Notes: generated by a model from the sequence alone, not told the origin. DNA of 64,000 nucleotides from an uncultured Lachnospiraceae bacterium (GCA_902788035.1 CADAIL010000007.1:46869-110868); one strand, 5' to 3'; counted from the stretch's first letter, positions 1 to 55,970 are shown. A program made the numbers and translations.

Positions 1-2108
1 CAAAGCACTGCTTTATAGAACGTGTGATTTCTGGATACATCTGCAAAAGGACTCTTTGCCGCGGTCTTAGGAGCAGGTTTACCTGCATATCTCCACAGTA
101 ACATCATCGCCTGTCCTCTCGTACACGGCAGGTTCAGACCGAAACTTCCGTCCTCAAAACCCTTCGCGATTCCTCTCCATGAAGCCCAGTAGACCGCCAA
201 ATAATATGGGTGCGTCGAATCCTGCACATCTGAAAACCGCCGCGCGTCTCCGATATTGCCACCCGGCATCTGCGTTAACGAGCAAGAAAGGAAGAACTGC
301 TCGGCAGAGGATTCACCTCTCACTCCCGTCAGAAGTGCCTTTCCCTGTGAAATTTCGGTGCCGGATAGCAGTACTTTTCCGTTAAACGCATTGATGAATG
401 TATATGTTCGGTTCGAATTCTCTTCTATCTTCCAAAGCTGTTCCTGACCGTCACCAGGTATACAAAGCACCACCTTGTCAGAATCTTTATCGGCAGAAAC
501 AGCGAGCATGCTGTCTGTCGACAGGATCCGGTACAGATTATCGTTTACAGGTTCGAATCTAAAATCATTCAGTTCGCGTCTTCCGTTCCCGTTCCACATG
601 ACAATGCCGGATCCGGAGTATCTCCCCTGAGAGTGAACATTAAAGCCACAATTTAGCGATGCGTATATCCAATAATTTCTGTCATTCCTCACTTTCCCGT
701 CATACGAGATCACCGGGTTCTTTTTTCTTTTTTCTGCCTCTCGTATAACTTTCTCAGGTAAAATATTCGAGGAACTGATGGCCCTGACCCATGGGCTTAG
801 TCCGGCAATCTGGGATATATTCTTTACCGTAGTGTTTAACGGTATGCTGTGAAATCTGCAGGTACGCTCGACTGCCTCCGTAATAAGCCACTCATGCACG
901 TAGATGAACATTTTACCGTTGATCAGCTTCTTCAGTTTCTCCGCCCTCTGGACATATCCCTCCTCCGGCTCAAAGACTATATATGTGTAGTTCGAATCCG
1001 GATCCTTTTGGGCCAATGCCTTCAGGGTCTTGGTATCATTCGACAAGTATGTTGCCTTGCCCTGCAGACCGTGCTTTTCGATCAGTGCATAGATGCTGTC
1101 AATCATTTTCTCCGTCACCTGCCGATCCCACTTGATATCAAGGTTCGGCCGAAGTCCGCTCTTTGCGCATATCTTAAGTGCGCTGTCCAGTGTCGGAGCC
1201 TTCTCCCCTTTCCACATCTGTCCCCTGCGTATACCAAAGTCATAAGTCTGCAGCTCCGCGTATGTCAGGTTCCTGACATAAATCGGATTCTCAATCAGCT
1301 TTCCATCTGTTGTTCTGCCGTAATTGTTAATCGCTTCATCGTGAAGGAGAACCGGAACTCCGTCTTTCGTAAAACGAATATCGAATTCCACTTCACGAAA
1401 TCCGACTGCCGCAGCCATACGTATCGAAGAGAGGGTATTTTCGGGAGCCGATTCGAAATATCCCATATGCGCGATAATTGCTAAATTAGAAGAAACGCGT
1501 ACCGGCTCGGTTATTTTTGCGCAGACCACATTTCCATTCACCGTGAGCGCACATTTATCTTTCAACTTCATCCTCTGCAGAAGATTGGCGGCCTTCTGCT
1601 TAGCATCTGTCAGATTCCCGCTGCCTTCTAGCGAAAAATTCCGATTGCCGCCATCAAGCCAGACGATTCGCAATACATATCCGGTTGCACCTGTTAATTC
1701 CTCATCGTCAGCCTGGGACACGTCTCCCCCATGCGTATCGACAACCGGATCAGCTGCACTCTCACATGGAGCAGCCACATCATCTTCTTCCGGCATATCT
1801 ACCTGTCCGGCATTCTCAATGATGGAACCGTCATCCGGTTTTACTCCCCACTTTTCCATCTCGGCTTCATCATCGGGCAAATATTCCGTATCCAGCGACT
1901 CTGTCACATTATCATTCTTTACCGTTCTATCCTCATTTGGTTCCGGCTCATACGCTTCCATATCCGGCACATCAGCAGCCTGTTCGACTATAACCTCTTC
2001 TTCCGAAGCCGGCTTATACATCTCTTCGGCATAAACGCCTGTAACACTTCCGACAAGTACATTGCCAACAAGAAAAAGCAACAATAATAAACTTATGGAT
2101 TTTTTCAA
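1..2108 (-). CDS. Secreted glycerophosphodiester phosphodiesterase (GDPD)-like / ricin-B-like / SLH protein, 3'-truncated by the window edge (paralog B)
   Basis: Not in the ORF track because it has no stop inside the window. Manual translation from TTG at 2108 (GAGGAG upstream) is open to position 1: signal peptide LKKSISLLLLLFLVG, acidic linker, IIAHMGYFESAPENTLSSIRMAAAVGFREVEFDIRFTKDG..HD, then SLH motif DVQDSTHPYYLAVYWASWRGIAKGFEDGSFG. Collinear with 5702..8035. Confidence 0.9.
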   Translation of the reverse strand, partial: MKKSISLLLLLFLVGNVLVGSVTGVYAEEMYKPASEEEVIVEQAADVPDMEAYEPEPNEDRTVKNDNVTESLDTEYLPDDEAEMEKWGVKPDDGSIIENAGQVDMPEEDDVAAPCESAADPVVDTHGGDVSQADDEELTGATGYVLRIVWLDGGNRNFSLEGSGNLTDAKQKAANLLQRMKLKDKCALTVNGNVVCAKITEPVRVSSNLAIIAHMGYFESAPENTLSSIRMAAAVGFREVEFDIRFTKDGVPVLLHDEAINNYGRTTDGKLIENPIYVRNLTYAELQTYDFGIRRGQMWKGEKAPTLDSALKICAKSGLRPNLDIKWDRQVTEKMIDSIYALIEKHGLQGKATYLSNDTKTLKALAQKDPDSNYTYIVFEPEEGYVQRAEKLKKLINGKMFIYVHEWLITEAVERTCRFHSIPLNTTVKNISQIAGLSPWVRAISSSNILPEKVIREAEKRKKNPVISYDGKVRNDRNYWIYASLNCGFNVHSQGRYSGSGIVMWNGNGRRELNDFRFEPVNDNLYRILSTDSMLAVSADKDSDKVVLCIPGDGQEQLWKIEENSNRTYTFINAFNGKVLLSGTEISQGKALLTGVRGESSAEQFFLSCSLTQMPGGNIGDARRFSDVQDSTHPYYLAVYWASWRGIAKGFEDGSFGLNLPCTRGQAMMLLWRYAGKPAPKTAAKSPFADVSRNHTFYKAVL

Positions 2109-2322
2109 AACACAATTCTCTCCTCAGATAGTTTTTACAAAAACGATTCTCGTGCAGGAAGACAGCAGCCACAGGTACTGTCAAAGAACCGGACTGCTGC
2201 TCATTGGTTTCTGATATATGCTATTATTATGAGATGGAACCAATTGACTGCAGTTGCAGTGCCAACGACTTGCGTTGAAAAAGGATCTCAGTCTGTAAAG
2301 AATAGATGTTAGATGGGCATAG

Positions 2323-2496
2323 TCAGGAATATCGTCCTGCGTTTCGGCCTGACTGACTGTCAAAGCGCATATCTCTTACGATATTCAGCACAGACATAAG
2401 CTGCTCGGAATCAAGTTTCTTTAATTCGGCGATGATTTCTGTCATTTCTTTTTCAGTATTCCCCGGATCGGTCATATATGTATTATCGGTTTCCAC
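2323..2496 (-). CDS. Small hypothetical helical protein (57 aa), divergent from the XRE gene
   Basis: Strong RBS (TAGGAGGGG) before a GTG at 2496 within ORF 2323..2568; METDNTYMTDPGNTEKEMTEIIAELKKLDSEQLMSVLNIVRDMRF. Confidence 0.5.
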   Translation of the reverse strand: METDNTYMTDPGNTEKEMTEIIAELKKLDSEQLMSVLNIVRDMRFDSQSGRNAGRYS

Positions 2497-2880
2497 CTGT
2501 CCCCTCCTAAGCGTGTCCCAAATCCTGCTCATGCAGCTTCGATATGAAGTTGATATCCTTTGATGCAAACATATTCCTGCACATTCTCCGCAATTTTGCA
2601 GGTCTTACAGAGAACAGGATAACTTAATACCAATTTAACATATATAATAGTTAACTCAGTTTACTTTGTCAATAAAATCGTGCCTCATTTCTCTTTCTGA
2701 ATATTGCTAAAAGATTCTAGTTATGGTAACGTAACACTAATATGGAATAAAATGTCCGAAGAACTAATTGACCAAACGAGCCGCAGACTGTTCCATCTCA
2801 CCGCCGCTTCATATGAAGACACAAGAATATAGTTGGATAAAAAAAGACCTCGGAACCGACACAATTCGGCCCGGAGTTCC

Positions 2881-2968
2881 CGCGAAGATGCGCTAGGATC
2901 CTGTTTGTTATTATGTCAGCTGCCGCTGATCCGGATTCCGCGCGAGGTCCCGCGAGCGGGACCTGAAT
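2881..2968 (+). repeat. Intergenic repeat family B copy (REP-like hairpin)
   Basis: GATGCGC..GGAT..TTATGTCAGCTG.CGCTGA.CC..AT.CCGCGC.AGGTCCCGCGAGCGGGACCTGAAT aligns with the reverse complement of 36002..36089. Confidence 0.75.
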
Positions 2969-2993
2969 GACATGTTTCAGACAGGAGGCTTAA

Positions 2994-3386
2994 ATGAAGC
3001 CCGGAGACAGAGTAAAAAAAATAAGAAAAGAAGCCGGTCTCACGCAGGAAAAATTCGGAGAACGGCTCGGTGTCAGTAAAGTGGCAATCTCAAAAATCGA
3101 AAGTAAGGTAAACTCTCTGAGCGACCAGATGTGCCGATCGATCTGCAGAGAGTTCAACATCAATAAAGAATGGCTGCTGACCGGCGAGGGAGAGATGCAC
3201 ACCCGTCGCAGCACGGATCTGATTATGCGGCTGAGTGACGAATACGGGCTTGATTCGCTGGAGATAGCCATCCTGCGGGAATATGTTCAGCTGGCTCCTG
3301 AGACAAAGAAGAGGTTCAGAGCGTATTTAACAGCTATCAGCGAGCGATTAACAACCGCTGACGAAGATGAGCGGGAGAACTCCTGA
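2994..3386 (+). CDS. XRE/Cro-CI family helix-turn-helix transcriptional regulator
   Basis: RVKKIRKEAGLTQEKFGERLGVSKVAISKIE...FNINKEWLLTGEGEM is a typical HTH_3 signature; RBS AGGAGG. Confidence 0.9.
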   Translation: MKPGDRVKKIRKEAGLTQEKFGERLGVSKVAISKIESKVNSLSDQMCRSICREFNINKEWLLTGEGEMHTRRSTDLIMRLSDEYGLDSLEIAILREYVQLAPETKKRFRAYLTAISERLTTADEDERENS

Positions 3387-3531
3387 TCATCTCATCGACA
3401 GGGAACCGGTATTCACGCTCGACGACCAGTCGCGGATGTTCCTCTGTGGTAATCGCATAGATGCAGATACCTTCCGGCGTCAGATCATGCGTCTTTATCT
3501 TGAGCTTATCTTCGGAATTGCGGGTGCAGAA
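3385..3531 (-). pseudogene. Orphan internal fragment (49 codons) of the NUDIX hydrolase gene
   Basis: Translates FCTRNSEDKLKIKTHDLTPEGICIYAITTEEHPRLVVEREYRFPVDEMI, identical to 8477..8623; no start, RBS or flanking gene parts. Confidence 0.9.
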
Positions 3532-3553
3532 TTAGTACGAATTGTATAAAAAT

Positions 3554-3625
3554 TCCTCGATAGCTCAATGGTAGAGCACTCGGCTGTTAACCGAGTTGTT
3601 GTAGGTTCGAGTCCGGCTGCCGGCA
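3554..3625 (+). tRNA. Chimeric/pseudo tRNA-Asn(GTT): Asn 5' half, foreign 3' T-stem and acceptor strand
   Basis: TCCTCGATAGCTCAATGGTAGAGCA-CTCGG-CTGTTAA-CCGAG-TTGTT-GTAGG-TTCGAGT-CCGGC-TGCCGGCA. D and anticodon arms are normal; acceptor TCCTCGA/TGCCGGC pairs at only 3 of 7 positions. Confidence 0.8.
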
Positions 3626-3633
3626 GTAAGCAA

Positions 3634-3680
3634 AATCCCCGATCTTGCTGAATTAATCAGCAGGATCGGGGATTCTTTTT
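3634..3680 (+). terminator. Intrinsic terminator (likely bidirectional)
   Basis: ATCCCCGATCTTGCTG-AATTAAT-CAGCAGGATCGGGGAT followed by TCTTTTT. Confidence 0.8.
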
Positions 3681-3709
3681 ATCTTTATCCGTAGCCAGCT
3701 TTCACTATA

Positions 3710-5473
3710 TTAACCCAGCTTCAGCTGCGCTACCATCCTTTTCGCAATCAGTTCCATACCATTATTATTCGGATGACTCAGGCTGCCTCCCTCAGCAATT
3801 CGAGTCGTCCCGTCATTGTATGTCACGATTGTGCCGGCAGGCGGCATTGTAGCTGCAGAACAAATATTCTCGATTGATACAAAATCGCATCCGTTCTCTT
3901 TACACGCACGAATATAATCGCTTATAACAGTCGGCCTGTAATACCATGTTCCGACACAGATTACGCGGGCTTTCGGGCAATCCGCCTTTATCTGCGCAAG
4001 AAGGTGCCTGATATTGTTCCCGAAGGCGGCTTTCTTTTCATTATTGTTCACATTATCTCCGAGTTGGATGATAATCAAATCGAGGTCTTCCTTAAAAAGG
4101 TATCTCTTAGCCGCGTACCACCTTGCTGCTGTATCCAGATCCGTACTTCCTTCAAAGGCCGTTCCCGACAATTTAGTAAAAACTGCAGTTGGATTTTTCT
4201 TAAGAATTGCGCTGGTAACGTAATAATAATAATCGTGTCTGCTGTCAGTGGCACACATACCGAAACGACCGCCTTTTTCCGCTGAACCAAGTCCCTGCAG
4301 CAGACTGTTTCCGATGAACAGAGTCTTTCCCGGAACGGTGGGAACAGAAATTGTCGTCCTGTCTGCTGTCAATATCGTCACATAGCTGCCGTTCTTCTTT
4401 TTGACTACAGGCGAACTGATATTTACAATCTTCCCGTTCTGCTTCGTGACGGTATAGAAATTATTCAAATAGTGTCTATATAAAAATGTAGCGATCTGTC
4501 CGCGTGTGCAGAACAGGCTTGTACCGAAAGTACCATCTGAAAATCCTTTTGTAACGCCTGCACTGCTGCCCCAGCAGACAGCTTGATAATACGGATGCGA
4601 GGCAGATATATCCTTAAAAGGCGACACTTTCGGAACTTTGATATCCGGCTTGCCGGCGACTCTCCACAGGAACATCATGGCGTGTCCGCGCGTGCAGTTC
4701 CTGTTAATGCCGAATGTTCCGTCAGCATATCCTTTGGCAATTCCGTTTTGATAAGCCCACAAAATCGCTTTGTAAAATGCGTGTGTCATCGGAACATCGG
4801 GAAAAGGACTTTTTCTGACATATTTGGGTGCCGGTTTTCCCATGGTTCTCCAAAGGAACATCATTGCTTCGCCGCGCGTGCAGTTGCTGTCGCTCCGAAA
4901 AGCTCCATCACTGTATCCTTTGGCAATCCCGTTGTTCCCGGCCCAGCAGATTGCCTGATAATAGGCGTGCTTAGCATCCTGAACATCCGGGAACGGGCTG
5001 TACGGACCTTTGGTCCACTGTACCCCGACTTTGCTTGGATCATCGTAATATGCCGCTTCCTCTCCCGCAAGGACCGTCGGGTCCTCTACGGTTTCCGAGC
5101 CATCCGTTTCTCCGACCGGTTGCATTTCCCGGTTTTCTTCCAAGGTATTGTCAGCTATCGAATCCGGATCTTCAACAATAGCGCTTTCTGCATCCGGTGT
5201 ATCATCATCTATCAAAGTCGGATCTTCAGCGATCACTTCTTCGCTTTCCGCCGCATTTTCAAAGGCCGAATCCGGGTCATCAGCAATCACATCTTCGGCT
5301 TCTGACACATTTTCAATCATCAGATCAGACTCCCCGGCAATAATTATCTCCGGATCTTCCGCCATGATTTCCGTAAAAGAGTCGACCGCTTGAACCGGGC
5401 AGGCGGTCGAAACTGCCAGCGATAAAGCAGTCAATATCGGCACAATGTGCCCGCGCATGGATTTTATATTCAT
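3710..5473 (-). CDS. Secreted SLH-domain protein with C-terminal SGNH/GDSL-like hydrolase domain
   Basis: Signal peptide, acidic EDP-rich linker, three SLH repeats (DV...H.YY.AI.WA...GI.KGY.DG.F), then LFIGNSL, IIQLGDN and SHPNNNG blocks. Confidence 0.8.
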   Translation of the reverse strand: MNIKSMRGHIVPILTALSLAVSTACPVQAVDSFTEIMAEDPEIIIAGESDLMIENVSEAEDVIADDPDSAFENAAESEEVIAEDPTLIDDDTPDAESAIVEDPDSIADNTLEENREMQPVGETDGSETVEDPTVLAGEEAAYYDDPSKVGVQWTKGPYSPFPDVQDAKHAYYQAICWAGNNGIAKGYSDGAFRSDSNCTRGEAMMFLWRTMGKPAPKYVRKSPFPDVPMTHAFYKAILWAYQNGIAKGYADGTFGINRNCTRGHAMMFLWRVAGKPDIKVPKVSPFKDISASHPYYQAVCWGSSAGVTKGFSDGTFGTSLFCTRGQIATFLYRHYLNNFYTVTKQNGKIVNISSPVVKKKNGSYVTILTADRTTISVPTVPGKTLFIGNSLLQGLGSAEKGGRFGMCATDSRHDYYYYVTSAILKKNPTAVFTKLSGTAFEGSTDLDTAARWYAAKRYLFKEDLDLIIIQLGDNVNNNEKKAAFGNNIRHLLAQIKADCPKARVICVGTWYYRPTVISDYIRACKENGCDFVSIENICSAATMPPAGTIVTYNDGTTRIAEGGSLSHPNNNGMELIAKRMVAQLKLG

Positions 5474-5701
5474 AAATACCTCTGTACTTTTTTATACCTG
5501 TACTGGTCAAAAAAATAATATCTACTCCAATTTAAAATGTCAATACACATCACCATATACAATTCCTTACCGAGCCGTCTCTCTCACTCTCAGCAAATGC
5601 CGGATTTCCGCAAATATTTCACTAATTAATTCTACCCCAATAATAGCATCAGGGGCTATCACTCCAACGGTGTACAGCCCCTGATGTATTCATCTCAATA
5701 T

Positions 5702-8035
5702 TTACTTCGCCCGGTAAAGGAAGGTTACAATAGCGCCTCTTGTGCAGTTCTCATCGATACCGAACGTTCCTTTCTTAGCGCCCGATGTATAGCCTGTCGT
5801 TATCTTCTGCTGATAGCCCCAGAGAATCGCTTTGTAGAAGACGTGACTCTTCGGCACATCCTTGAATAGAGCGGTTGTGACCGCCTTCGGTGCCGGTTTC
5901 CCTTTTAACCTCCAGAGGAACATCATGAGCTCACCGCGGCTTACATTGCTGTCGATGCCGAATGTTCCGTCCGGATATCCCTTTGTGATGCCATTCTGAG
6001 AGGCCCAGAGAATCGCTTTGTAAAATACATGGGTCTTTGAAACATCCTTGAACGGACTCTTTGATACTGCTTCCGGAGCAGGTTTCCCCGCACATCTCCA
6101 CAGGACCATCATCGCCTGTCCTCTCGTACACGGTGCTTTCAGACCGAAACTTCCGTCTTCGAAACCCTTCGTGACTCCTCTCCATGTAGCCCAGTACACC
6201 GCTCTGTAATAGGGATGGTTCGGATCCTGCACATCCGAATACCTGCGCGTATCTCCCACCTTACCGCCCGGCATCTCAGTCAAAGAGAGCGACAGGAAAA
6301 ATTCTTCTGTTGATGATTGATCCTGTTCGGCAACTACAAGGGAATCCCCCTGTGCTATTCCGGTGTTTGCGCGAAGCGATCTTCCGTCAAAAGCATTGAT
6401 AAATGTATATGTCCTGTTCGTATTCTGCTGTATCAGCCACAACTGACGCGGCTCATCATCTGAAGGCAGACTAAGTACGACCTCATCGGAGGTCTCATTT
6501 GTTGAAAGGGCAAGCATGCTGTCTGTCGATGTGATTCGATACAGTCCTTCATATACCTGCTCGAACCTGAAATCATTCAGTTCTTCCCTTCCGCTGCCAT
6601 CCCACATAAGAACCCGAGATCCCACAGAATCGGATTCTATGTGAGCACAGAAACCACAATTTCGCGATGCGTATATGCGATAATTCCTGTCGGTTCTGAC
6701 TTCGCCGTCATAAGAAATTACCGGGTTCTTTTCTCTCTTTTCTGCTTCTTTGATAACTTTCTCCGGAAGCATGTAAGATACACTGATAGCTTTGACCCAC
6801 TTGTCAAGTTTTGCAATATGATCTGTCCTGTCCACAACTGTACTCAGCGGTATACTGTGAAATCTGCAGGTGCGCTCGACAGCTTCCGATATACTCCGTT
6901 CATGTACATAGATAAACAGTTTGCCGTTTATCAATTTCTTAAGTCGTTCTGCCTCCTCTATATATCCTTCCCTCGTACTAAATGCAATATATGTATAGTT
7001 CGAATCCGGGTCCATCTGGGCGAGAACGGTTAAATACCTCGCTATGTTCGACAGATATGTTACGCTGCCCTGAAGATTGTATTTTTCAACCAGTGACCAG
7101 ATGCTGCATATCATTTCCTCCGTCATTCGTCCATCGCTCTTGATATCCAGGTTCGGCCTAAGTCCGCTCTCCGCGCAGATCTTGAGAGCACTGTCTAACG
7201 TAGCTGCCTTCTCTCCTTTCCATATCTGCCCCTTGCGAATGCCGAAATCATATGCCTCCAGCTCAGTATACGTCAAATCCCTGATATAAATCGAATCCTG
7301 GATGACGTTTCCGTCTGTTGTTCTTCCATAATTGTTGATTGTCTCATCATGTGAAATCACCGGAATTCCGTCTTTTGTAAAACGTATATCAAACTCCACT
7401 TCACTAAATCCGACCGCAGCTGCCATTCGAATTGAAGAGAGCGTGTTTTCCGGAACAGCGCTGCAGTATCCCATATGAGCTATGACCGTGATTTTAGATG
7501 AGGCACGTGTCGGCTTTTTGATTTCAGCACAGATTGTATTTCCTCTCACTGTAAGAGTGCATCTGTCTATCAGCTTCAGCTTCCGCAGAATACTCCCGGC
7601 TTGCTGTTTCGCCTCTGTCATGTTCCCGCAATCATTGAGCGAAAACTCCCGGCTCCCCCCATCCAGCCAGACAATCTCGAGCGCATATCCGGAAGAACCG
7701 GATAATCCTTCATCTTCAGGCTGTTGTATATCTTCTGTGTAACTGTTATCAGTGAAATCATCGAAAATCTCGACGTACTGCTCATCAACATCTTCTTCAG
7801 CAGAATCAATTATTTCCGCATCTTCTGTGATGAGCGTCTCATCAGGAAGAGAATCAGCGTCATTCTCCAAGACTTCCTCTGCTTCTGTATCCGGAACTTC
7901 CGCAGCTTCCTCCGTCACGAACATTTCCTCATAAGATGTTCCTGATATCTCCTCCGCATAAATCTCACCGATACCGCAGATGAAGACACTACATACAATT
8001 AAGTGCACCAGCATAAATTTAGCATACATCTTCAT
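5702..8035 (-). CDS. Secreted GDPD-like / ricin-B-like / triple-SLH protein (paralog A)
   Basis: VIAHMG..PENTL...EVEFDIRFTKDG..ISHD (GDPD), YRITSTDSMLAL/QLWLIQQN (beta-trefoil-like), three C-terminal SLH repeats. Confidence 0.85.
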   Translation of the reverse strand: MKMYAKFMLVHLIVCSVFICGIGEIYAEEISGTSYEEMFVTEEAAEVPDTEAEEVLENDADSLPDETLITEDAEIIDSAEEDVDEQYVEIFDDFTDNSYTEDIQQPEDEGLSGSSGYALEIVWLDGGSREFSLNDCGNMTEAKQQAGSILRKLKLIDRCTLTVRGNTICAEIKKPTRASSKITVIAHMGYCSAVPENTLSSIRMAAAVGFSEVEFDIRFTKDGIPVISHDETINNYGRTTDGNVIQDSIYIRDLTYTELEAYDFGIRKGQIWKGEKAATLDSALKICAESGLRPNLDIKSDGRMTEEMICSIWSLVEKYNLQGSVTYLSNIARYLTVLAQMDPDSNYTYIAFSTREGYIEEAERLKKLINGKLFIYVHERSISEAVERTCRFHSIPLSTVVDRTDHIAKLDKWVKAISVSYMLPEKVIKEAEKREKNPVISYDGEVRTDRNYRIYASRNCGFCAHIESDSVGSRVLMWDGSGREELNDFRFEQVYEGLYRITSTDSMLALSTNETSDEVVLSLPSDDEPRQLWLIQQNTNRTYTFINAFDGRSLRANTGIAQGDSLVVAEQDQSSTEEFFLSLSLTEMPGGKVGDTRRYSDVQDPNHPYYRAVYWATWRGVTKGFEDGSFGLKAPCTRGQAMMVLWRCAGKPAPEAVSKSPFKDVSKTHVFYKAILWASQNGITKGYPDGTFGIDSNVSRGELMMFLWRLKGKPAPKAVTTALFKDVPKSHVFYKAILWGYQQKITTGYTSGAKKGTFGIDENCTRGAIVTFLYRAK

Positions 8036-8110: not shown

Positions 8111-8743
8111 TCACCTGCATTCAAGGAAGCGGAACGGATCATCATCCGGCATCGCAAGGAACTGCATCATCAAAAACGCGGCTCTGAGTGAGAGTTTCTC
8201 CTCCGCCAGGATTCTTCTAACCTCCGCCTTATCGGCAAGAATGACCTCTATCCACTCCGTCGATTCGAGCTCTCGACCCACATTGGCCATCACGCGGCCG
8301 AACACTGCGCTGCCCGGCTCATCAGTAAATCCCGGCGCAAGGAAGAAGGGTCTCCTACAGAAAGCCTCACCCCCGGTATACTCTGTGAACTCGAATCCTG
8401 TCTCCTCCCTCATCTCACGCCTTGCTGCCTCGCCCGGTGTCTCACCCGGATCTATAAGGCCGGCGGGGAGCTGATAAATCATCTCATCGACCGGAAACCT
8501 GTATTCACGCTCGACGACCAGCCGGGGATGCTCCTCAGTTGTGATTGCGTATATGCAGATTCCTTCCGGCGTCAGATCATGTGTCTTTATCTTGAGCTTG
8601 TCCTCTGAATTGCGGGTACAGAAAAAGTAATCTCTCGGATTCCCTTCACGGTCCTCAAAACCGAGATGATACATATTGAGAAACCGGTTGTCTGTCTGAC
8701 GCTCGACATATTTAATGTGGCTTTTTCTACTCATCTTATTCAT
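8111..8743 (-). CDS. NUDIX hydrolase (ADP-ribose pyrophosphatase-like)
   Basis: Nudix box LPAGLIDPGETPGEAARREMREETG; REYRFPV motif. Confidence 0.9.
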   Translation of the reverse strand: MNKMSRKSHIKYVERQTDNRFLNMYHLGFEDREGNPRDYFFCTRNSEDKLKIKTHDLTPEGICIYAITTEEHPRLVVEREYRFPVDEMIYQLPAGLIDPGETPGEAARREMREETGFEFTEYTGGEAFCRRPFFLAPGFTDEPGSAVFGRVMANVGRELESTEWIEVILADKAEVRRILAEEKLSLRAAFLMMQFLAMPDDDPFRFLECR

Positions 8744-9632: not shown

Positions 9633-9687
9633 CACTTTTTTTGCATTTGTCTCAGCTTATTTAAGTACCGCTTATTTATGTACACCG

Positions 9688-9896
9688 GAACAGTTCAGAC
9701 AGGCTGTTACGAAGTTCCGGGTCCGGCCGCAAACATCATCTTCATCGAAAAACGCAGTTCCTGCCCTTCGAGCTTGAGTAGAGGCGGCTTACCGCCTCTA
9801 CCCGATCTCTCCGGTCGGAACTGCAATGTTTTTCTCACGAAGATGGATGCTTTGCTGCCGGAGACGAATTGCAGGAACAGCCTGTCTGAACTGTTC
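9688..9896 (-). repeat. Family A ~200-nt rod-like palindromic element, copy 1
   Basis: 21-bp perfect terminal IR GAACAGTTCAGACAGGCTGTT; conserved arms CCGGCAGCAAAGCATCCATCTTCGTGAGAAAAACATTG / CGTTTTTCGATGAAGATGATGTTTGC. Confidence 0.9.
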
Positions 9897-9951
9897 CTCG
9901 CCTACATCCGAAGTCAGCCCAACTTACTCATCCTTCTATTAATAATTGATA

Positions 9952-21720: not shown

Positions 21721-21817
21721 TAGTTCGGCTGGCTGCAGCGGATGATCAGGAACCGGCGCAAGCATCATCTTCATCGAAAAACGCCGGTCCTTCCAGATTT
21801 AACCGCCTCTTGAACTA
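21721..21817 (-). repeat. Family A half copy (one arm only)
   Basis: Reverse complement GGACCGGCGTTTTTCGATGAAGATGATGCTTGCGCCGG..GCAGCC..GAACTA matches the 3' arm of the full copies. Confidence 0.8.
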
Positions 21818-25506: not shown

Positions 25507-27885
25507 TTACTGTTTACTCAAATTATGCAGGAATTTAACGATCTGCCCGCGTGTACAGTTCTTATCGACTCCGAAAGTTCCGTCGGCAAAGCCCTTGGTG
25601 ATTTTCTTCTGATATCCATAAAGAATCGCTCTGTAGTAGATATGCTGCTTTGGGACATCACAAAACGGCGATGCCGATGACATTGCAGGTACCGGTTTTC
25701 TCAGATATTTCCATATGAACATCATGATATGCCCCCTCGTACATGCCTCGTTCATGCGAAAAGTCCCGTCGCTGTAGCCGCCGGCAATACCTGTCTGATA
25801 AGCCCACAATATGGGCTTGTAGAACGCACCGTATTTTGGCACATCCCGGAAAGAAAGTGCCGGCGTCTGTTTCGGCTCCGGTTTCCCCGCGAAGCACCAC
25901 AAGAAGCGAATTGCCTCCGCTCTGGTACAGGCTCTGTCTATTCCGAAGGTCCCGTCACTGTAGCCGCCGGCAATGCCTTTATCCGCAGCCCAGTAAATCG
26001 CATTGTAATAGGGATGACTGGGATCCAGAACATCAGAGAAGACTTTTCTACCCGCTTTCGCGGTGCCAAGCGTCCTCGTTGCCGCACGGATACGCAGCAC
26101 TTCCCCGTCGCCTTCCTCTGCCAGATCCATCCATTTGCCGCAGGGCATTCTTACAAGACTTCTGCAGTAAAGATTATCAGTCTCAAAGAGAACATCACCG
26201 ACCAGCTGCCGTCTCTGCGCTGAAAACGACTCAGTCCGGTTGCCGATGTTCTCTACGACGATCGAATACCAGCTGCCCGAGCTCACTACGACTTCCTTCG
26301 GAAGCCTGAAAGTATTGAGTCCCGCCCCGTTCATCTGCACGGTTTGGCTGACAGCCCTCCGCCCGCTCGTCGGATCATCCGTGTCCAGGAGATCAGTAAA
26401 TACCGTTACCTTATACCTGGCATTTCCGGTCCACGTACACAGCGATATCTCACCTATGGCTTCGCCCCGTCCGGCACCCGCCTTGACTTCGTAGACATTG
26501 GCGCCCGCAGTCATATTTTCACCGCTCACTGCGGAAACAGGGTCCAGACAGCACGAATTTCCCACCATCGCAAGTCCGTCATAGAAATACAGATTCGAAT
26601 ATTTTCTCTCCGCTGTCTTCACGGCTGACACTGACACACAGCCAAGCATCGTTGCATTCTCATAAGATATGTAGAAATAACCGCCGTCGCCCCAGTCATC
26701 GCCCCAGGAATTTTTAGCGATCCATGCGCCGCTCTTTTTCGGTCTGCCGCCGCTGTTGAATTTGGATACCGCAAATGCGTCATCCCAGCCCACCAGCGTG
26801 ACCACATGATTGCTCCTCATGTTAGCCGAATCATAGTAACCGTTCGTAGTCAGGTTCCTTGACGCGTTCTCATAGTACATGGAAACAGCGACAGCCCCGT
26901 TTTCCATGATCTCTTTTTTTACTTTGTCAACGCTGTAATCAAATGTCTCGTAACTCTCAAGTCCTGCGTAAGAGATATAGGCTTTATCCTTCGACGGAAC
27001 AGCGGATGACTCCTTATAATACACATTTCCTTTCGAGTCGACACGCCTTGTGAGATAAAACGGAACATCGGCTTCCTTCGCTATCCCCTGACCGGTGCTG
27101 AGTTCCTGCAGCAGATAGATCGGACTGCCGGACGCATGTCTGTACGCGGTCGCTTCGTCGGAGTCCTGATAAACCATCTGCATGTCTCCGGTATTGTGAA
27201 GGGGGTCATCCTGCCTGTTAAAATAAAAATATGCCAGCTGCTCTTCAGACAGATCAAGAGCATTCTTATTCTCATCAGTATATCTTTGAAGGAGTGATGT
27301 CTCCATAAGAGCTGCTGCGGAGAAAGCCCAGCAGAGTCCTGAAGTACCCTGGTCTCTTACAGGCGTGAGCCGTGATGTGATATAGGAGGATGGGGTATTG
27401 GCTCCGACCAGCTCCTCATCTTCCTCCTGCTCTCCTTCGTCGGGAGAAGGGACATCGAACTCCTTGAGTCCTTCATAATATCTGGCAAATCGCTCTTCAT
27501 CCTGCACGTACGCCCGGGGCAGTCCCTGCTCATCTTTGTCTGGAACATCTGCATCGGACTGCTGCTCTTCGACCCATCCTTCACAGAGCGGCTCCCAGAC
27601 CCGGTCACCGGGCTCAGGCTGCTCTTCGCTGCCGGCTTCCTGAATCGGCTTTTCATTATCACAAGCTTCGGGTGTCGGAGACTCCGCTTCAGCTTCATCG
27701 GATTCATCTACAGCTTCCGTAATTGTTTCAGCCTCAGTCTCTTCCCACATTGCGTCCTCATCGTATCGGACAGACACATTCAAAGTGTCAGAATACTGTT
27801 CGCCCATAACGGGAGACACAGTCATAGTCAGCATAACGCTTATGGCCGTAAGCATGATCACAAAACGCCTAAATCCCTTACTCAT
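25507..27885 (-). CDS. Secreted papain-like C1A cysteine peptidase with lectin-like domain and triple SLH
   Basis: DQGTSGLCWAFS (Cys), NHVVTLVGWDD (His), KNSWG (Asn); signal peptide; three C-terminal SLH repeats. Confidence 0.9.
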   Translation of the reverse strand: MSKGFRRFVIMLTAISVMLTMTVSPVMGEQYSDTLNVSVRYDEDAMWEETEAETITEAVDESDEAEAESPTPEACDNEKPIQEAGSEEQPEPGDRVWEPLCEGWVEEQQSDADVPDKDEQGLPRAYVQDEERFARYYEGLKEFDVPSPDEGEQEEDEELVGANTPSSYITSRLTPVRDQGTSGLCWAFSAAALMETSLLQRYTDENKNALDLSEEQLAYFYFNRQDDPLHNTGDMQMVYQDSDEATAYRHASGSPIYLLQELSTGQGIAKEADVPFYLTRRVDSKGNVYYKESSAVPSKDKAYISYAGLESYETFDYSVDKVKKEIMENGAVAVSMYYENASRNLTTNGYYDSANMRSNHVVTLVGWDDAFAVSKFNSGGRPKKSGAWIAKNSWGDDWGDGGYFYISYENATMLGCVSVSAVKTAERKYSNLYFYDGLAMVGNSCCLDPVSAVSGENMTAGANVYEVKAGAGRGEAIGEISLCTWTGNARYKVTVFTDLLDTDDPTSGRRAVSQTVQMNGAGLNTFRLPKEVVVSSGSWYSIVVENIGNRTESFSAQRRQLVGDVLFETDNLYCRSLVRMPCGKWMDLAEEGDGEVLRIRAATRTLGTAKAGRKVFSDVLDPSHPYYNAIYWAADKGIAGGYSDGTFGIDRACTRAEAIRFLWCFAGKPEPKQTPALSFRDVPKYGAFYKPILWAYQTGIAGGYSDGTFRMNEACTRGHIMMFIWKYLRKPVPAMSSASPFCDVPKQHIYYRAILYGYQKKITKGFADGTFGVDKNCTRGQIVKFLHNLSKQ

Positions 27886-32970: not shown

Positions 32971-33136
32971 GTATATGATGTCCGCTCTTACGGCGCGGCA
33001 CTCCTCCTTCGAACATAGTCATAGATGGTATTATTTTAAATCAAATAAATCTACATTGCAATATACAAGTCACGACTCAATAATCGCGTTCGCAGCGGGA
33101 TCGCCGCGGTTCGTCGCAGTTCGCCATGGACAGAAA

Positions 33137-33329
33137 AGTTCAGACAGGCTGCATCATCATTTCGTTTCCGGCAGCAGAGCATTCATCTTCGTGAGAAAAA
33201 CATTGCTGGTCCTTCACTGAGAGATCAGCAATGCACATGCATTGCTAAGCTCTCAGATAGGACCTGCGTTTTTCGATGAAGATGATGTCTGCGCCGGATT
33301 CGGGAACTGTCTTGCAGCCTGTCTGAACT
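33137..33329 (+). repeat. Family A element, copy 2
   Basis: AGTTCAGACAGGCTGCA...TGCAGCCTGTCTGAACT with the same internal arms as copy 1. Confidence 0.9.
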
Positions 33330-33531
33330 GTTACAGCGGATATTAATACGGGAAGGCTCCTTACGCGTTAGTCCCTGCGCATCACCAAAAAAAGACTGCC
33401 GTATACGCGGCAGTCTCATATGGGGCCACTGATCAAGAACGTCTCGGCGCTCCTGCCGCGACGTGTGCGGCGATTTTTCCTCCCGCTGCGCACGTCTGCG
33501 ATCCACGATAGTTTTCATTCTGCGTCAGAGA

Positions 33532-36001: not shown

Positions 36002-36134
36002 ATTCAAGTCTTGCTCGCGAGACTTGGCGCGGGATTTGGGTCAGCGTCAGCTGACATAATCCCATACCAAATCCCTGCGCATCCACGCGGAGCGTTTATC
36101 TCAGTTGTGGGTTGTGACCCACCACTGAGATAAT
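36002..36134 (-). repeat. Family B full composite copy
   Basis: Reverse complement: TTATCTCAGT-hairpin ... GATGCGCAGGGATTTGG...TTATGTCAGCTGACGCTGACCCAAATCCCGCGCCAAGTCTCGCGAGCAAGACTTGAAT. Confidence 0.8.
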
Positions 36135-44294: not shown

Positions 44295-44425
44295 TTATCT
44301 CAGTGGGGGTAGCCCCCACTTCCGCAAGGTAGTTAAATCAATTTCCTGTTCGTATCAGAGTCAAGTCACAACCCCACTAACGCTGACCCGAATTCCGCGC
44401 CAAGTCTCGCGAGAGAAACTTGAAT
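44295..44425 (+). repeat. Family B composite copy
   Basis: TTATCTCAGTGG... CGCTGACCCGAATTCCGCGCCAAGTCTCGCGAGAGAAACTTGAAT ending 5 nt from the ispF stop. Confidence 0.75.
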
Positions 44426-44430
44426 CATGG

Positions 44431-49140: not shown

Positions 49141-49343
49141 GTGACAGTTCAGACAGGCTGTTCTTATGTGACGTTTCCGGCAGCAAAGCATCCATCTTCG
49201 TGAGAAAAACATTGCATATCCGACTGAGAGACCGAAACATGCGAGGCGTGTTGCAGGCTCGCAGGGAAGGATATGCGTTTTTCGATGAAGATGATGTTTG
49301 CGCCGGATTCTGAAACTCCGCTACAGCCTGTCTGAACTGTCAC
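49141..49343 (+). repeat. Family A element, copy 3
   Basis: 21-bp perfect terminal IR GTGACAGTTCAGACAGGCTGT / ACAGCCTGTCTGAACTGTCAC. Confidence 0.9.
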
Positions 49344-55773: not shown

Positions 55774-55970
55774 AACAGTTAGGCAGACTTATTATGCAGT
55801 TCGTTACCGGCAGCAAAGCATCCATCTTCGTGAGAAAAACATTGTCGGTCCGACTGAGAGATCAGCAATGCGTATGCATTGCTAAGCTCGGAGGGCAGGA
55901 CCGACGTTTTTCGATGAAGATGATGTTTGCGGCCGGTTATGGAACCCCGTCGCAGCCTGTCCGAACGGTT
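55774..55970 (+). repeat. Family A element, copy 4 (decayed terminal IR)
   Basis: Internal arms CCGGCAGCAAAGCATCCATCTTCGTGAGAAAAACATTG / CGTTTTTCGATGAAGATGATGTTTGCGGCCGG intact; ends AACAGTTAGGCAG / GCAGCCTGTCCGAACGGTT. Confidence 0.85.

Follow-up and report, generated by a model that had tools for sequence, protein, structure and literature searches.

The window analysed here is a stretch of 64,000 nucleotides from an uncultured Lachnospiraceae bacterium (GCA_902788035.1, CADAIL010000007.1:46869-110868), and its left part carries genes for S-layer proteins, a regulator and a NUDIX hydrolase next to tRNA genes. The first of these, here called GDPD', encodes an S-layer protein with GDPD, ricin-type lectin and SLH domains (3-2108, minus strand; Pfam) and runs past the window start. 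It is followed by the small ORF of an orf-XRE module (2323-2568, minus strand; 57-69 aa in public assemblies), homologues of which lie between GDPD and XRE in the relatives G022, G051 and G053 (91% aa identity in G053), and by an intact gene for a 130-aa XRE-family HTH regulator (2994-3386, plus strand; Pfam HTH_19/HTH_3), whose TGA stop occupies 3384-3386. The XRE protein occurs as an identical copy on 22 contigs, and its homologue in G053 shares 94% of its amino acids along the full 130 residues. Next come the NUDIX' remnant that is the subject of this report (3394-3531, minus strand), the native 22-nt upstream flank of a tRNA-Asn gene (3532-3553, plus strand; identical to C7:42560-42581), a collapsed tRNA array (3554-3625, plus strand) and a strong hairpin terminator with an 18-bp stem and a T run (3634-3681, plus strand; hairpin at 3634-3674). 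Beyond the terminator, the minus strand encodes an S-layer protein with SLH and GDSL-lipase domains (3710-5473; Pfam), a second S-layer protein of the GDPD-lectin-SLH type (5702-8035; Pfam) and an intact, resident NUDIX hydrolase of 210 aa (8111-8743; Pfam NUDIX), which belongs to a cluster of 172 near-identical proteins. Members of this cluster are named ADP-ribose pyrophosphatase by JGI, and the NudE/ADP-ribose matches that NCBIfam returns for the resident protein are all sub-threshold. Periodic repeats of 186 nt (4645-4969, 5789-6217, 25588-26016 and 74-212) correspond to the SLH domain triplets of several S-layer proteins, and another SLH protein is encoded near 25.6 kb of the window.

The reverse complements of 3385-3531 and 8477-8623 give the same 49-residue translation, FCTRNSEDKLKIKTHDLTPEGICIYAITTEEHPRLVVEREYRFPVDEMI (49/49), which in the resident 210-aa ORF at 8111-8743 (minus strand) corresponds to residues 41-89 in the same frame. 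The two 147-bp stretches differ at 19 nucleotides, 18 of them at third positions and one at a first position (CGG/AGG), and all of these differences are synonymous. By the Nei-Gojobori method (S = 32.7, N = 114.3), dS is 1.12 and dN is 0. The chance that a random substitution here is silent is 0.22-0.28, and the probability that 19 of 19 are synonymous under neutrality is about 1e-11 to 1e-12. The count needs one refinement at the left edge. One of the 19 differences, at base 3385, falls on the G of the XRE stop and belongs to XRE, and 3386-3393 (ATCATCTC) is common to both parents of a deletion joint described below, so that 18 differences are certain; they lie in 3394-3531, the stretch that is certainly derived from NUDIX, with 18 synonymous and 0 non-synonymous changes relative to the resident gene. 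The remnant spans codons 41 to about 86, has no start codon and cannot yield a protein, with codons 1-40 and 90-210 gone and an in-frame TAA directly upstream; an ORF scan found no minus-strand ORF of at least 40 aa over it. Three neutral hits in the remnant would all be silent just 1-2% of the time, and the observed 0 non-synonymous changes are compatible with at most about two neutral hits since truncation. The preliminary description of this locus had reported the 49 identical residues and the 19 purely synonymous differences, which we recomputed with the same result. Its further arguments also hold up: the all-silent pattern is not that of a decaying local duplicate of the resident gene, the dN of 0 indicates a diverged source that was functional and under purifying selection, and the loss of function was recent, given how few neutral hits fit the data.

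The functional NUDIX genes of three relatives (G000, G004 and G051) encode the same 49 residues and lie 12-22 of 147 nt apart, and many metagenome NUDIX alleles encode exactly these 49 residues too. The remnant is 16-20 nt away from each of these three functional alleles. Neighbouring genes (DUF624 and the isomerase gene) are 85-89% identical in nucleotides between species of the clade, which is the level seen between remnant and resident gene. Given these silent differences among functional alleles and the divergence of the neighbours, the remnant behaves like a further functional allele, whose lineage is roughly one species removed and which was brought in beside the resident allele and recently truncated; because it is as far from every sampled allele as these are from each other, it has had a long history of its own under constraint. 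The near-identical intact donor that the preliminary description proposed to look for did not turn up. No intact NUDIX gene identical to the whole remnant was present in 53 genomes of the genus (best 90%, in G051) or at 16 loci reached via 4-5 members of the 90% protein cluster, and exact-pattern scans of JGI metagenome contigs for the intact right end and for the central 35-mer gave 0 matches each, so that the donor lineage is one we infer rather than one we can name.

The nearest intact allele, L052, has 11 differences in 147 nt and is mosaic, being identical over 3471-3531. Unitigs in several runs likewise match 3470-3531 and then run on into the 5' part of NUDIX; the left part, 3386-3468, was seen in the truncated copy only. 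Loose ends in runs X12, X14 and X18 were considered as the intact donor and rejected, as only 3470-3531 is common to intact genes, and the 'undeleted' end past 3393 belongs to an L038-type haplotype, which carries a resident-type NUDIX allele. A comparison of the whole resident gene (8111-8743) with L038, L043, L048, L052, L053 and L057 gave a mosaic, almost only synonymous pattern (92-99% nt and about 97-100% aa identity). Such mosaic alleles fit frequent recombination at this flank gene.

The remnant is one of several doubled elements. A repeat search and self-BLAST of the window plus 10 kb upstream returned four collinear matches, namely 1-1715 with 5782-7723 (72% nt identity), 3386-3537 with 8478-8629 (87%), C7:42560-42642 with 3532-3614 (99%) and C7:42990-43071 with 3604-3685 (88%). 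Doubled in the same order and orientation are GDPD'/GDPD, NUDIX'/NUDIX, tRNA-Asn with its flank, and the tRNA-Leu 3' end with its terminator. Unit 1 (7.8 kb) comprises a tRNA array, gtr-like glycosyltransferase genes (GT_STM0557_N, GT2 and GtrA by Pfam), GDPD', the small ORF, XRE and the NUDIX' piece; the Pfam lists contain no integrase, excisionase or transposase among its genes. Unit 2 (5.1 kb) follows directly and comprises the collapsed tRNA array, SLH-GDSL, GDPD and the intact NUDIX gene, with DUF624, tRNA-Ser and a mannose-1-phosphate guanylyltransferase/isomerase gene after it. Because the flanks are doubled too, the remnant marks where a doubled block of 5-8 kb ends; it is not an isolated insert. 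The degree of similarity between the units varies along their length. Over 74 nt of tRNA-Asn and its flank the units are identical; the tRNA-Leu 3' end with the terminator, of which 3634-3681 is the unit 2 copy, is 88% identical, over a length too short to interpret (83 nt, including 22 nt of tRNA). GDPD' and GDPD are collinear at 59% aa identity and about 72% nt identity over 1958 nt, and by this comparison GDPD' is a paralogue or xenologue of GDPD. A search for the pre-doubling haplotype through the exact SLH-GDSL protein returned only the doubled form or contexts too short to tell.

Three illegitimate joints, here called J1, J2 and J3, lie within 240 bp of each other around the remnant. J1 is marked by the 8-nt microhomology ATCATCTC (3386-3393), left by a 437-bp deletion that took the spacer between XRE and NUDIX' together with NUDIX' codons 90-210. 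One copy of ATCATCTC overlaps the XRE stop, as in L038, the other lies in NUDIX codons 87-89, and a single copy is kept. The left parent, L038, reads ...CTCCTGATCATCTC up to the joint and CCGCGCG beyond it, the NUDIX parent, represented by the intact gene, reads ...GATAAATCATCTC and then ATCGAC, and the window combines ...CTCCTGATCATCTC with ATCGAC. After the deletion the XRE stop codon abuts NUDIX' codon 89, and homology of G053 to the window likewise stops at 3393. J2 (3531/3532), placed by three-way comparison, fuses NUDIX' codon 41 to position -22 of tRNA-Asn; unit 1 ends here, and unit 2, whose first element is tRNA-Asn, begins. This joint is blunt, with 0-1 nt of microhomology and just an offset AGTA similarity nearby, and on the NUDIX strand it reads TAC-TAA-TTC, which creates the in-frame stop. 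The preliminary description had observed that the fragment starts exactly at the XRE stop and ends 22 nt before the tRNA; both statements are correct, the first because the J1 microhomology overlaps the stop codon, and the 22 nt of the second are the native upstream flank of tRNA-Asn. A 60-aa ORF on the plus strand (3367-3549) runs over the XRE end, the remnant and J2 and is annotated as a gene in a single public assembly (L033), most likely a false prediction that bridges the scar.

J3 lies inside the tRNA array. A complete Asn-Met-Asp-Leu array is found upstream (C7:42582-43011), and its alignment to 3554-3625 resolves the latter into the 5' part of tRNA-Asn(GTT) (3554-3603), the sequence GGTTCGAG (3604-3611; J3) and the 3' end of tRNA-Leu(TAA) (3612-3625). 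At J3, 358 bp have been deleted between the GGTTCGAG T-loops of tRNA-Asn and tRNA-Leu, leaving one copy of GGTTCGAG; the deletion took the remainder of Asn, the Met and Asp genes and the larger part of Leu. What the preliminary description had called a chimeric tRNA is, on this alignment, the Asn-Met-Asp-Leu array of the second copy after its collapse. Its acceptor stem cannot pair, so the product would be non-functional. ARAGORN calls no tRNA at 3554-3625, and Rfam gives nothing there except a partial tRNA match, to model positions 7-64 only. Deletion between short direct repeats by replication slippage is established in bacteria and keeps one repeat copy, as J1 (8 nt, 437 bp) and J3 (8 nt, 358 bp) each do.

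The arrangement from which the remnant was cut can be seen in relatives. A complete NUDIX gene lies directly downstream of, and convergent with, an XRE homologue in G022, G051, G053, G054 and L038, and L048, L049 and L053-L056 likewise carry an intact XRE gene with a complete NUDIX gene converging on it; the spacer between the two genes in this ancestral arrangement measures 10-77 nt. The metagenome contig L038 is the closest example, with an identical XRE protein and 99.4% identity to 2138-3393, followed by a 70-nt spacer and a complete NUDIX gene, and G053 is 94% identical to 2109-3393. The order of the locus in relatives is tRNA Asn-Met-Asp-Leu (plus strand), S-layer and glycosylation genes (minus), small ORF (minus), XRE (plus), NUDIX (minus), DUF624 (minus) and tRNA-Ser (minus). 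The capture of a gene fragment, as first proposed, is contradicted by these relatives, which keep a complete NUDIX gene after XRE; what the window displays is two truncations of that same gene. The intact XRE-NUDIX pairs are essentially the complete second NUDIX gene, later shortened by two deletions, that the preliminary description had itself named as the alternative to capture.

In rumen Lachnospiraceae, the interval between the tRNA array and NUDIX-DUF624-tRNA-Ser is an S-layer and glycosylation site whose gene content differs between strains and species (L017, L029-L032, L038, L043, L048, L053 and L057). The elements combined in this interval include GDPD-SLH, SLH-GDSL, gtrA/GT2/GT_STM0557 and two kinds of XRE regulator (130 aa and 195 aa), and at least six arrangements of the variable locus were seen. 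The interval from tRNA array to NUDIX looks like a hotspot for the replacement of surface structures.

Our preferred reading of the 147-bp stretch, to which we assign a probability of roughly 85%, is that a variable surface locus exists in two tandem, non-identical copies and that the stretch is what is left, without function, of the NUDIX gene at the end of the first copy. It is a pseudogene and a rearrangement scar of an ordinary kind, with two deletions at microhomologies nearby. The surface locus is present twice, the remnant being the rest of a second, foreign-allele NUDIX gene, and the two units are xenologous, coming from different lineages rather than being fresh copies of one another. 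J2 could have been created by tandem doubling, by a circularised donor fragment and one crossover, or by homology-facilitated illegitimate recombination (HFIR). The deletion between ATCATCTC repeats at J1 cut codons 90-210 from NUDIX', and the one between GGTTCGAG T-loops at J3 collapsed the second tRNA array. The silent differences would have arisen while both NUDIX genes worked in separate lineages, with the truncation too recent for neutral decay; the differences would be purely synonymous because they accrued in two functional genes and little time has passed since one of them was truncated. The order of the J1, J2 and J3 events and the route to J2 are what we infer; tandem duplication with allelic replacement, single-crossover integration of a circularised fragment and HFIR have identical topology at J2. 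The position of the J1 and J3 deletions within 240 bp of J2 may hint at one complex event. Read in this way, a gene fragment with only synonymous differences needs no exotic capture, since a diverged functional allele brought beside the resident gene and then truncated would suffice. The scar would record how surface loci of rumen Lachnospiraceae are rebuilt, through homologous flanks and illegitimate joints, and annotators should treat the remnant as well as the chimeric tRNA as pseudogenes.

The position of NUDIX at the border of a variable surface locus has a parallel in gnd, which lies beside the O-antigen cluster of Escherichia coli and shows the hitch-hiking polymorphism of a conserved flank gene. 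NUDIX similarly displays deep, mosaic and almost purely synonymous divergence among close relatives, a likeness seen among the sampled relatives and metagenome alleles. HFIR and circularisation followed by single-crossover integration have both been documented for incoming linear DNA of foreign origin (PMC3240628); the former has also been put forward to explain comparable arrays, with orphan gene ends, at T6SS and Rhs loci (PMC5361080). The present locus, a possible product of these routes, resembles what they yield in having a diverged unit with a conserved left flank, in having one illegitimate joint (J2) accompanied by long homology, and in having diverged DNA inserted with the resident kept. 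Unlike typical HFIR, J2 lacks the usual 3-10 nt of microhomology (0-1 nt here, beside the offset AGTA), and a plain tandem duplication with later allelic replacement would yield an identical map. Orphan remnants from sequential displacement have been described in the T6SS effector-immunity arrays of Vibrio cholerae and as orphan 3' ends at Rhs/CDI loci (PMC5361080). As in those arrays, an incoming allelic module appears to have been anchored by a conserved flank and the resident was not cleanly replaced, and tandem modules occur with truncated pieces of a conserved gene that bear the signature of another lineage. In contrast to them, the modules here encode S-layer and glycosylation functions instead of toxins, truncation struck a NUDIX flank gene of housekeeping type and not the variable gene itself, and no function such as retained immunity is tied to the remnant.

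Metatranscriptome assemblies bear on whether the remnant is expressed. In four of four runs, from three studies, unstranded contigs continue unbroken from XRE into the remnant (2756-3499, 2840-3499, 3364-3499 and 3025-3480), in one run a contig crosses J2 (3484-3560), and together these contigs cover 2756-3560 continuously. In the Illumina RNA runs X25, X26 and X28 the neighbouring stretches are almost without coverage. The contigs of the XRE transcript begin within or before a GC-rich, hairpin-forming repeat of about 55-89 nt at 2880-2968, directly upstream of the XRE start. This repeat also occurs at 36002-36090 and 44377-44428 and gives 35 BLASTN matches in the genome including itself (73-90% identity), with dozens more across other genomes of the genus; Rfam has no match for it, and it looks like a REP/MITE-type element. 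The preliminary description had noted that no terminator separates XRE from the chimeric tRNA, and this stands in so far as none is convincing from the XRE stop to 3634, although there is a weak 5-bp match to the terminator consensus at 3476-3493, no better than shuffles give. The hairpin at 3634-3681 is the likely end of both an XRE read-through transcript and the convergent SLH-GDSL mRNA. As the RNA contigs are unbroken over the remnant, a read-through transcript is plausible, and the remnant probably forms the tail of the XRE mRNA. That part of the earlier proposal of a read-through transcript carrying an antisense stretch against the NUDIX mRNA thus finds some backing, but the contigs are unstranded. 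In another RNA run (X32), one contig skips 169 nt (5530 to 5700) from the SLH-GDSL start region to the GDPD end and differs in many further places; its probable source is a related strain whose intergenic region is shorter, not processing.

If the remnant is transcribed in this way, the tail of the XRE mRNA, about 146 nt, might pair in trans with the resident NUDIX mRNA, alter its stability or translation, and be kept by selection. The remnant has 87% complementarity to the NUDIX mRNA over 146 nt, with perfect runs of 21, 20 and 17 nt, and the predicted duplex has an energy of -232 kcal/mol vs -63 for shuffles. The continuous RNA coverage and the near-absence of coverage in the neighbouring stretches would also agree with such a role, as would the lack of a convincing terminator, and since the XRE-NUDIX spacer is so short in relatives, a cis-antisense overlap may pre-exist. 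Nonetheless we regard a functional antisense role as unlikely. The RNA contigs are unstranded, and the three illegitimate joints fully account for the anatomy. The remnant has no sign of selection beyond its recency, the SNP count (0 in 146 nt of remnant vs about 1% in the flanks) is not significant, and the mismatch of 13% is the level of any unselected foreign allele. The remnant in the 3' tail of the XRE transcript is most likely a passive passenger. It is doubtful, on somewhat longer odds still, that a microhomology deletion turned a probable XRE/NUDIX cis-antisense overlap into a trans-acting tail on the XRE mRNA. On that reading, the XRE mRNA would carry 146 nt complementary to the mRNA of the surviving NUDIX gene 5 kb away and then a tRNA-like 3' structure. 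If this were true, NUDIX expression would be coupled to the XRE regulator, and a trans-antisense regulator would have been caught at birth from a gene remnant; if confirmed, such a case would be of moderate interest.

An old tandem duplication in place, in which all changes fell in the functional copy and the truncated copy stayed unchanged, would produce the topology of a tandem duplication seen here and is nevertheless very improbable. Neutral evolution of a truncated copy proceeds at roughly the synonymous rate. At a dS of 1.12, about half of the changes would be due in the remnant and about 75% of these would be non-synonymous, but none is. An old in-place duplicate is excluded because the truncated copy would have gained non-synonymous changes. 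The remnant is, moreover, as far from each functional allele (16-20 nt) as the alleles are from each other, and GDPD and GDPD' are just 59% identical in protein.

Some features of the locus recall integrase-mediated islands that enter at a tRNA gene and bring a replacement piece of their target gene, as phage 21 and e14 carry a replacement 3' end of icd in E. coli. As in those cases, the resident gene has next to it a duplicated coding segment whose differences are biased towards synonymous sites and which encodes the same amino acids; in addition, the remnant adjoins tRNA genes, and unit 1 has gtr-like genes of the serotype type. Unlike phage 21 and e14, unit 1 has neither integrase nor excisionase, the remnant is internal (residues 41-89, at neither gene end) and restores no reading frame, and the tRNA-Asn 5' part is duplicated together with its upstream flank, which an att-site mechanism does not do; an island of this type is therefore scarcely credible, and an integrase-borne replacement gene end was rejected on the same absence of an integrase and the same internal position. 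Two further candidates were discarded, a template/variable pair of a diversity-generating retroelement (DGR), as the differences occur at all four bases and at third positions without any residue change and the neighbouring genes include no RT, and a silent cassette for gene conversion of the pilS type, as 49 of 49 residues are identical and there are no variant residues.

The structure itself is well covered by independent data. For each of J1, J2 and J3, Logan assemblies from separate runs and several studies contain contigs that cross the joint at 100% identity, including contigs over J2 in runs X1, X4, X10, X12, X14 and X16. Among those that cross J3 are a contig of 363 nt in X1 and the ENA scaffold L061, and in X4 a 7430-nt contig connects 3561 with the tRNA-Leu of unit 1. 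Seven ENA assemblies (ERZ27280471, ERZ27280377, ERZ919287, ERZ27280389, ERZ920179, ERZ28613406 and ERZ28614149), which come from different assemblers (megahit k141 contigs and scaffolds of other pipelines), span at least one joint with contigs 99.98-100% identical to the window, and the longest, in the first three, run from GDPD' into unit 2. The same structure is present in at least seven independent assemblies and is no misassembly. A chimera of two co-occurring strains, joined by the assembler via shared tRNA or NUDIX sequence, might have been suspected in a 53-contig, metagenome-type assembly from samples in which related haplotypes co-occur, but it is extremely unlikely in view of these spanning contigs, and microhomologies of 8 nt are too short to fool assemblers with k of 21 or more.

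Farther along the window, a family of 80-90-nt repeats (79-92% identity) occurs in both orientations at 9673-9897, 21731-21794, 33133-33348, 49144-49340 and 55781-55970. One pair of these repeats forms a local inverted repeat adjoining tRNA-Ser(gga).
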